Origin: Escherichia phage TM1
Length of the DNA stretch: 39,817 bases
Sequence record: MT808983.1
Strand: one strand, 5' to 3'
The notes below the pieces were generated by a model. The model searched no databases. It was not told the DNA's origin and saw only the letters and a list, made by a program, of their open reading frames with translations. Position 1 is the first letter of the stretch. Each line of letters starts with the position of its first letter. Positions 11,198 through 13,270 of the stretch are shown here, piece after piece. The position numbers were made by a program, and so were the translations under genes.

Positions 11198-11413
11198 ATG
11201 ATTAAACTTATCGAATTTCTTGGTCGTCTGGTGGTGCGTGGTTATCGTCGTGCTGCGGTACTGGAACGAAAGGTAGAAAAGAAGAATGCTGACGGTGCGA
11301 CTGATGCTGCTGCTCTGGCTGACAAGCTGACCATCGCGTCACTGGAAGCTGGCATGAAGGCACGTCAAGCTGACACCAAAGCTGACCAGTTGGCTCAGTT
11401 CTTCAAAGCCTAA
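11198..11413 (+). CDS. Small alanine-rich protein (71 aa), unknown function
   Basis: Strong SD AAAGGAGAA; its stop codon TAA lies inside the next promoter. Confidence 0.55.
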   Translation: MIKLIEFLGRLVVRGYRRAAVLERKVEKKNADGATDAAALADKLTIASLEAGMKARQADTKADQLAQFFKA

Positions 11414-11431
11414 ACTATCACCTTAGGGATG
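11408..11431 (+). promoter_or_regulatory. Phage-RNAP promoter variant (taaACTATCACcTtAGGGat)
   Basis: Two substitutions in the -4/-3 region; upstream of the tRNA-like element and the primase-helicase gene; probably weaker. Confidence 0.45.
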
Positions 11432-11476
11432 GGACCATGAGTCCTTTCCCTTTGTTCGCATTTGTGATTAAGAAAT

Positions 11477-11555
11477 GTCTCCATAGCTCAAACGGTAGAG
11501 CGGCGGGTCATGATGGCCTATTGCGATTAGGGTTCGAATCCCCGTGGAGACGCCA
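11477..11555 (+). tRNA. tRNA-like element (possible degenerate tRNA, candidate anticodon CAT; anticodon arm ambiguous)
   Basis: Perfect 7-bp acceptor stem (gtctcca/tggagac), T8, D-arm gctc-aaacggta-gagc with GG, T-loop GGTTCGAATCC, discriminator G and encoded CCA; but 26 nt between the D- and T-arms with imperfect anticodon stem pairing. Confidence 0.4.
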
Positions 11556-11566
11556 ATAAGGAGTGA

Positions 11567-13270
<1,704 letters not shown>

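Follow-up and report, generated by a model that had tools for sequence, protein, structure and literature searches.

A 79-nt sequence in the leader of the primase/helicase gene of Escherichia phage TM1 has the outward appearance of a tRNA gene. Is it a functional tRNA of unusual form, the decayed remnant of one, or a tRNA-like RNA that serves as an RNase P/processing signal? The initial annotation of this DNA listed these three options and read, by eye, a CAT anticodon (Met or Ile2-type). The window analyzed here is a 39,817-nt stretch (one strand) from the TM1 record MT808983.1, and all coordinates refer to it.

Genomic context

The features of the locus that bear on this question are the following.

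11413-11429, + strand: phage-RNA-polymerase promoter, variant AACTATCACCTTAGGGA, driving the leader, the element and gene 4 (consensus match; invariant in relatives except at one position in SEA1f)
11431-11445, + strand: small 5' leader hairpin GGGACCATGAGTCCT (terminator-pattern scan)
11477-11555, + strand: tRNA-like RNA gene, 79 nt including the encoded CCA (ARAGORN; Rfam RF00005, 36.5 bits; RNAalifold consensus cloverleaf; present in 34 related phage records)
Subparts of the element, + strand: acceptor stem 11477-11483 / 11545-11551; D arm 11486-11501; T arm 11528-11544; discriminator G11552; CCA 11553-11555; U at position -1, 11476
11558-11563, + strand: Shine-Dalgarno sequence AAGGAG of gene 4 (sequence; alignments and repeat search)
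11570-13270, + strand: primase/helicase gene (T7 gene 4 equivalent), co-transcribed downstream of the element (ORF list; so annotated in all relatives)

The proposed location between a phage promoter and the primase-helicase gene is borne out by the promoter matches and by the annotation of related phages. The promoter variant AACTATCACCTTAGGGA is one of seven + strand copies of the consensus AACTATCACTATAGGGA in the window, where 0.09 copies are expected by chance. By analogy with T7 promoters, transcription probably starts at G11426, and the element begins 50 nt downstream of this promoter-derived start. The small hairpin of the leader stays pairable despite changes in relatives (e.g. GAGACCACGGGTCTT in the alignment with 22664UKE3-2) and is presumably a 5' stabilizing stem. 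On the other side, the Shine-Dalgarno sequence follows the CCA of the element by 3 nt, within TAAGGAG.

A tRNA-like element below the tRNA standard

The element is laid out as GTCTCCA-TA-GCTC-AAACGGTA-GAGC-G…TAGGG-TTCGAAT-CCCCG-TGGAGAC-G-CCA. The acceptor stem is a perfect 7-bp helix (GTCTCCA / TGGAGAC) and is followed by T8, A14 and a D arm, GCTC-AAACGGTA-GAGC, with G18G19; the T loop lies within GGGTTCGAATCCC. The sequence, the covariance alignment and RNAalifold agree on the upper part of a cloverleaf, with a 7-bp acceptor stem, a G18G19 D arm, a TPsiC-type T arm, U8 and A14. ARAGORN calls a tRNA-Met (cat) at exactly 11477-11555 and finds no second tRNA in the 39.8-kb window. The Rfam tRNA model RF00005 matches 11477-11552 with 36.5 bits, above its gathering score of 29 (E = 3.3e-4 for the whole window and 2.2e-6 locally), and a permissive Rfam scan of 11380-11640 matched no family other than tRNA. 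These scores, with no other family coming close, place the element beyond chance, and the description of a 79-nt sequence with most tRNA invariants is confirmed.

By covariance score, the element is tRNA-like, but clearly below the tRNA standard. Nine bona fide tRNAs from the loci of this analysis score 54-70 bits with RF00005, and the orthologue in Kosakonia phage Kc166A scores 27.2 bits, under the threshold of 29. The covariance model leaves the anticodon arm unaligned, treating it as a 21-nt insertion instead of the expected 17 nt. The initial annotation had noted an excess of about 3 nt between the D and T arms; this excess is real, the spacing being 26 nt compared to 22-23 in a standard tRNA. 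The T stem of the window element contains an A x C mismatch (pair 53-67). The low scores, the malformed anticodon arm and this mismatch all favor the view that the element is a functionless relic, i.e. a captured tRNA gene that is decaying and persists by linkage and recombination in a variable slot of the genome.

Distribution and the cassette site

The window represents a K1F-like, T7-type phage of the genus Kayfunavirus, whose best relatives are ST31 (97%) and pO91 (95%). The element is present in 34 of ∼210 related GenBank phage records (about one in six K1F-like records), and the carriers include phages of Escherichia, Enterobacter, Salmonella Typhi, Klebsiella, Citrobacter and Kosakonia. 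Its identity to the window is 92.7-97.8% in 33 records and 83% in Kc166A, and it is located at the same position in all of them. Over 11470-11560, the closest GenBank phage record reaches 97.8% identity to the window, and none is identical. When the divergent Kc166A copy served as the query, the same 34 records were recovered. Thus, the element is conserved in a subset of related phages and, because a tRNA-like element in the gene 4 leader has been found together with conservation in some relatives, the initial annotation stands in these respects.

The slot occupied by the element, which is that of the kayfunavirus pseudo-tRNA family, lies after the promoter that trails the amidase and small-ORF genes and before the primase/helicase module. 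In most relatives (MopsHU1 type) the slot is empty, with the ribosome-binding site directly after the leader. A few relatives (IMEP24 type) carry a 58-aa ORF in the slot, between two 16-nt direct repeats of TAAGGAGTGACCAATG. The AAGGAG of gene 4 belongs to this same module, which flanks every cassette found in the slot by alignments and repeat search (seen at 11460-11572 in the window, at 970 and 1150 in locus L005 and at 388 in locus L009). The gene after the element is gene 4 in most carriers, an HNH endonuclease gene in SH5 and a nucleotidyltransferase gene in Kc166A. Among the phages closest to the window in the flanks, some carry the element and others lack it, and we therefore regard it as an exchangeable 88-bp cassette. 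Most relatives lack it, which is in keeping with a relic and implies that any benefit would be conditional.

The labels that the element carries in GenBank are varied: tRNA-Thr, tRNA-OTHER, tRNA-Pseudo(GTG), "tRNA", or none. The tRNAscan-based annotations among them (pseudo or OTHER) also agree with a relic. A "pseudo-tRNA gene" at this position has been mentioned for Kc166A, DY1, ST31 and LM33_P1 (PMC8402661). Our literature search found the element treated nowhere beyond that one sentence, earlier mentions being one-line annotations. The element was therefore already noted, in annotations that include no structural, evolutionary or functional analysis. On sequence grounds, the window copy is a further member of the kayfunavirus pseudo-tRNA family: it is the same element at the same position and is at least 97% identical to most copies, but it alone has a G-to-A change that turns an apparent CGT into CAT.

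Beyond GenBank phages, pattern scans of IMG/VR and metagenomes detected only ST31 itself and two more members of the family (loci L026 and L032); the remaining matches are ordinary tRNAs (Glu, Thr, Ile, Lys) or unrelated sequences. The L026 copy (metagenome contig CYGL01000127.1, 5152-5229) has CCC instead of CCCC in the 3' strand of the T stem. This 1-nt loss reflects either a sequencing error or a damaged copy; if the latter, it would fit a decaying gene. Two other metagenome contigs (L029, 1141-1230, and L031, 130-220) contain a D arm TAGCTCAAT[T/C]GGTAGAGCGG, a T loop GGTTCGATTCC and a long, irregular middle, with no ARAGORN call; these sequences may represent another aberrant tRNA-like element, unrelated to the kayfunavirus family. 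A further contig (L033, 3173-3250) contains an unrelated tRNA whose anticodon loop is abnormal; the ARAGORN call is a "tRNA-???" with a two-base anticodon (tc).

The apparent CAT anticodon is private to the window

11510, + strand: private G-to-A substitution making the apparent CAT anticodon (alignments; no identical GenBank phage record)

In the alignments, CAT is found only in the window, while most copies read CGT in this register, and none of the 33 close GenBank copies matches the window. The site equivalent to 11510 is G in the copies read, except for T in pO91; the majority sequence around the loop is …GGGTCGTGATGGCC…, where the window has A. Other loop variants are TCTTTAT in pO91, TCGTTAT in PDP21P1, and TCGTGAAGA in L032 and Kc166A, and further changes in the arm (element numbering) are G40A in SH5, T32C in Seyj3-1 and C28T in 101120B1-2. 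The near-identical copies thus include five loop variants (GTGAT, ATGAT, TTTAT, GTTAT and GTGAA), and the isotype that ARAGORN assigns to orthologous copies flips between Met, Thr, Ser and Stop with single-base changes; no anticodon is conserved among them. Because gene finders give these orthologues four isotypes, the element should be labeled as a tRNA-like RNA or pseudo-tRNA rather than tRNA-Met. Substitutions in the seven close variant lineages are concentrated in this part of the molecule, with 9/13 in the 19-nt anticodon arm (p = 7e-4) and 5/13 at the five loop positions (p = 8e-4), which is the opposite of the pattern of a decoder.

The discriminator of both tRNA-Met and tRNA-Ile in E. 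coli is A, and the element has G11552 in place of the A73 of these identity sets. As a result, the Met or Ile2-type reading is rejected: A11510 is private, the isotype calls are unstable, the CAT register is poorly paired and the discriminator is G. A methionine tRNA is very unlikely.

A GNRA- or boxB-like pentaloop was also considered as a conserved motif of the loop and was discarded, as GTGAA (Kc166A and L032) fits GNRNA, whereas GTGAT, ATGAT and TTTAT do not.

A non-canonical anticodon arm

11505-11509 / 11515-11519, + strand: stem of the non-canonical anticodon-arm hairpin (element positions 29-33 / 39-43), with the 5-nt loop ATGAT at 11510-11514 (RNAalifold, pair counts, energies)

The RNAalifold consensus of the nine distinct copies is a cloverleaf with a 29-33/39-43 hairpin and a 5-nt loop, and this hairpin is kept in every copy. 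Across the family, 85.7% of the cells are paired in the 5-nt-loop hairpin (counted on the extended 27-33/39-45 helix, in a model partly chosen on the same sequences used to score it), compared to 68.9% in the 7-nt register of ARAGORN and 37.8% in the Rfam/tRNAscan register. The energies of the nine variants follow the same order: -5.5 to -8.2 kcal/mol for the 5-nt-loop hairpin, -4.0 to +1.7 kcal/mol for the ARAGORN register and +4.2 to +10.5 kcal/mol for the Rfam/tRNAscan register. Under the 5-nt-loop model, the changes at positions 29, 32 and 40 all convert G.U pairs to Watson-Crick pairs; under the ARAGORN register, which gives CAT, they break pairs in SH5, L032 and Kc166A. In the structural model, additional pairs could lengthen the hairpin, either G27.U45 or, across a bulge, G27-C48 and C28-G47. 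The longer hairpin explains why the D and T arms lie 3 nt further apart than usual. The initial annotation had described a poorly paired anticodon stem closing the loop gTCATga. The poor pairing of that register holds (68.9%), but the loop itself gives way to the longer hairpin with its 5-nt loop. Pair counts, energies and the bases at positions 33 and 37 speak against a standard 5-bp stem with a 7-nt loop, U33 and a purine at 37.

These observations bear directly on the possibility that the element is an atypical but working decoder, with an identity set by its anticodon (Thr-CGU in most phages, Met-CAU in the window and Lys-CUU in pO91), which might replace tRNAs lost to PARIS-like anticodon nucleases. 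ThrRS, MetRS and LysRS all read the anticodon. The 7-nt loop drawn by ARAGORN has U33 and CAT or CGT, and the majority loop UCGUGA resembles the loop of E. coli tRNA-Thr(CGU), UCGUAA. Moreover, phage T7, which lacks tRNAs, is rescued by those of T5, and the element has neither the UAAU motif recognized by AriB nor the D-loop U16U17 (PMC12409363). However, the CAT register contains a G x G mismatch, has no nucleotide 26, requires a 9-nt variable loop and is disrupted in the three copies named above. With the ARAGORN register, the base at position 37 is U in pO91 and PDP21P1 and otherwise G, and U33 is changed to C in Seyj3-1. tRNAs reading ANN codons carry A37/t6A, and in E. coli neither Met nor Lys nor Thr identity goes with a discriminator G. 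No part of the element is less conserved than the anticodon and, compared to the anti-PARIS tRNAs of the T5 type, no stable Lys, Thr or Asn anticodon exists across the copies. A single tRNA would also be insufficient for the three main PARIS targets (PMC12409363). We consider a working decoder highly improbable.

Selection on the folded RNA

The 13 substitutions in the seven lineages include G.U-pair transitions, which are easily preserved, and cause the loss of not a single base pair (P = 0.001-0.012, simulation). A compensatory change is found in pO91, where pair 2-74 changes from UA to CG. In Kc166A, pair 55-65 changes from GC to AU and the A x C mismatch 53-67 is repaired to A-U, while both partners of 7-69 are lost. 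The genome of Kc166A is 68.8% identical to that of ST31 (PMC8402661). Its D arm and T loop are identical at 25/25 positions, against a flank identity of about 70-80% (72-82% in the local flanks). Similarly, the element of 22664UKE3-2 is 98.7% identical, compared to 74.6% for the adjacent small ORF and 90.5% for the leader. Every close copy read retains the encoded CCA.

Judging from these alignments, the acceptor, D and T arms and the helix of the anticodon arm evolve so as to keep the structure, while the bases of the loop drift freely. It is quite likely that the element is under selection as a folded RNA. Covariation statistics are weak, since the family is shallow (nine distinct sequences, eight of them at least 92% identical), and the mosaic recombination typical of these phages could have inflated the apparent conservation. 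With that reservation, structure-preserving evolution argues against a freely decaying pseudogene: the absence of broken pairs, the compensatory double changes in pO91 and Kc166A, the invariant D arm and T loop of Kc166A and the retained CCA are not what a relic would show. We therefore rate a functionless relic as improbable.

Origin

A blastn search against 5,426 complete E. coli genomes gave no match even at E ≤ 10, and the family-specific pattern had no match in 100,044 species-representative genomes. A host origin was rejected on this basis, in the absence of any E. coli match or any genome match to the architecture of the family. The pattern of the acceptor stem and D arm was found only in Firmicutes, Mollicutes and archaeal tRNAs, mostly of the Lys type; these matches reflect generic similarity among ANN-box tRNAs and do not identify a donor. 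The element probably descends from a real tRNA. Most copies still have UCGU as in the anticodon loop of Thr-CGU, and the likeness of UCGUGA to that loop makes descent from a Thr-type tRNA plausible.

A nucleotidyltransferase next to the Kc166A copy

In locus L008 (Kosakonia phage Kc166A), the element lies at 1500-1577 and a nucleotidyltransferase gene at 1594-2133. This copy ends in …GGAGACAACCT and has no complete CCA. The adjacent gene encodes a 179-aa protein with the nucleotidyltransferase motif GG-x-x-RD…D-x-D, which matches phrog_1614 "nucleotidyltransferase" (E = 1.5e-28); its match to the Pfam poly(A) polymerase/CCA-adding head (PolyA_pol) is weak (E = 0.028, below the cut-off), and no relative was detected in the PDB at the sequence level. 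Phages of Ningirsuvirus, Troedvirus, Warsawvirus and Pifdecavirus carry homologues in the same slot, promoter-driven and flanked by the amidase and primase/helicase genes; the nucleotidyltransferase-bearing phages of these four genera contain no tRNA-like element, and the window contains no homologue of the enzyme. A review of the Autographiviridae describes the phrog_1614-type protein as the tRNA nucleotidyltransferase-like "TRNT" (PMC8472413).

The presence of the element and of nucleotidyltransferase homologues at the same site indicates that the slot repeatedly holds cargo related to the 3' end of tRNA. In other genera of Studiervirinae TRNT fills the slot that the element has here, and it adjoins the element in Kc166A, but it is a protein rather than an RNA and is absent from the window, and its functional link to the element is hypothetical. 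The arrangement suggests, circumstantially, that a mature CCA end matters for the element, in a link that comes from one genome and involves an enzyme common in phages without the tRNA-like element.

Proposed function

Taken as a whole chain, the best explanation of the locus is a non-decoding, structure-constrained tRNA mimic that is excised from the gene 4 leader and acts in trans, to which we give a probability of roughly 0.4. The links of this chain differ in strength. That the element is not a conventional decoder is very likely. Processing by RNase P, predicted from sequence, is somewhat favored. Action in trans as a mimic or decoy is the single likeliest role and, considered separately, a tentative one. 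Of the three options initially proposed, a functional decoding tRNA is thus the least supported and simple decay is opposed by the structure-preserving evolution, while a tRNA-like processing or mimic RNA fits best.

We propose that the phage RNA polymerase would make the element abundantly within the gene 4 leader and that the RNA would fold into an L-shape. Host RNase P would then cleave on the 5' side of G11477. The determinants of bacterial RNase P are the acceptor/T helix, the D/T elbow, the -1 base and the 3' RCCA, and the anticodon loop is ignored; the element has U at 11476, a 12-bp acceptor/T helix (7 + 5), G18G19 with the elbow sequence TTCGAAT, and GCCA at 11552-11555. Host 3' processing would trim the RNA to its CCA, yielding a stable species of ∼76-79 nt, and the excision would part the leader from the gene 4 message. 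The released RNA would read no codons. Instead, its top half and CCA end would mimic tRNA or compete for a host factor that binds it, such as a tRNA-targeting defense nuclease or toxin, or the tRNA 3'-end machinery. There is precedent for phage tRNAs in defense, as T5 tRNA-Lys, tRNA-Thr and tRNA-Asn neutralize PARIS (PMC11464382, PMC12409363) and some viral tRNAs have been suggested to be competitive inhibitors (PMC12409363).

A more specific version of this role, which we consider unlikely, is a dedicated decoy that is made in bulk by T7-type transcription and soaks up or inhibits a tRNA-attacking factor (such as a PARIS/PrrC-type nuclease or a CCA-end toxin); the slot would then be a counter-defense slot, filled in other Studiervirinae by the CCA-adding-like nucleotidyltransferase, and the element would team up with the nucleotidyltransferase in Kc166A. 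For a decoy, the drifting loop could reflect either irrelevance or an arms race with the recognition site of a nuclease.

The same RNase P determinants would also serve a purely cis-acting signal for processing or stability, in which RNase P and a 3' endonuclease cut the leader and set the 5' end, stability or translation of the gene 4 mRNA, the excised RNA being a by-product. tRNAs and tRNA-like structures are known to punctuate mRNAs, as in the t-elements of plant mitochondria, MALAT1 mascRNA and E. coli metY-nusA. The element is always located between the promoter-plus-leader and the Shine-Dalgarno sequence of the next gene, 3 nt from TAAGGAG, and its conserved parts are those that RNase P would recognize, while the loop drifts. 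However, the gene downstream varies between phages (gene 4, HNH endonuclease or nucleotidyltransferase), which makes a gene-specific role in cis unlikely, and ∼85% of the close relatives do without the element while expressing gene 4 from this promoter. The helix of the anticodon arm is kept although it is dispensable for RNase P, and the CCA-less copy of Kc166A beside a CCA-adding-like enzyme points to a matured, free 3' end. Overall, we judge a purely cis-acting signal to be a minority possibility, weaker than a role in trans and stronger than a relic.

Relationship to known tRNA-like RNAs

Like the phage tRNAs of the T5 type, the element is phage-borne, tRNA-shaped, accessory and patchy in its distribution, likewise without the features recognized by AriB and, by analogy, presumably expressed. 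Those tRNAs, however, are canonical, have conserved anticodons and restore decoding, whereas the element has a non-canonical arm, a drifting loop and about half the covariance score. A second comparison is with tRNA-like processing signals, which are also tRNA-shaped and define the ends of the longer transcript that contains them. Examples are the t-elements of plant mitochondria, MALAT1 mascRNA and the tRNA-like transcripts of the gammaherpesvirus MHV68, which are recognized by RNase P or RNase Z and do not decode. These signals are eukaryotic, organellar or animal-viral, and the processing of the element is predicted; we know of no tRNA-like processing signal in the leader of a T7-type phage gene. 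The RNAs of the T4 tRNA cluster (species 1 and 2, rnaC/rnaD) and tRNA-Other of Bacillus cereus are stable and tRNA-related without being ordinary decoders, with roles that, where known, are regulatory, but T4 species 1 and 2 and tRNA-Other have no sequence kinship with the element and belong to another genomic setting.

T7-type coliphages are usually described as having no tRNAs, and here is a tRNA-shaped RNA whose body, but not whose "anticodon", appears to be kept by selection. tRNAs are now seen as a major point of attack for bacterial immune systems, which phages counter with tRNAs of their own. Since natural, isogenic-like variants with and without the element exist, a non-decoding mimic in a 40-kb phage of a model type would be an easy system in which to test decoys. 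If the element is merely a processing signal or a relic, it is a minor point of annotation. Its moderate interest lies chiefly in offering a tractable candidate for a phage tRNA mimic that does not decode.

Other features of the locus

A 40-aa ORF (11437-11559) overlies the element. A protein-coding reading was rejected, as the start is lost in 22664UKE3-2 (ACG) and the frame is lost in pO91 and SH5. Antisense pairing of the loop with the start of gene 4 was likewise dismissed, with only 6 nt complementary, not above chance.

The promoter copy at 11413-11429 reads CACCTTAGGGA where the other six read CACTATAGG[G/A]A. The near-invariance of this variant among relatives, with one position differing in SEA1f, suggests from sequence a distinct strength or class of promoter. 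Upstream of it, a 71-aa ORF (11198-11413) matches phrog_1950 (E = 3e-25) and, weakly, Pfam DUF5471. This ORF is far more divergent in 22664UKE3-2 (74.6%) than its neighbors.
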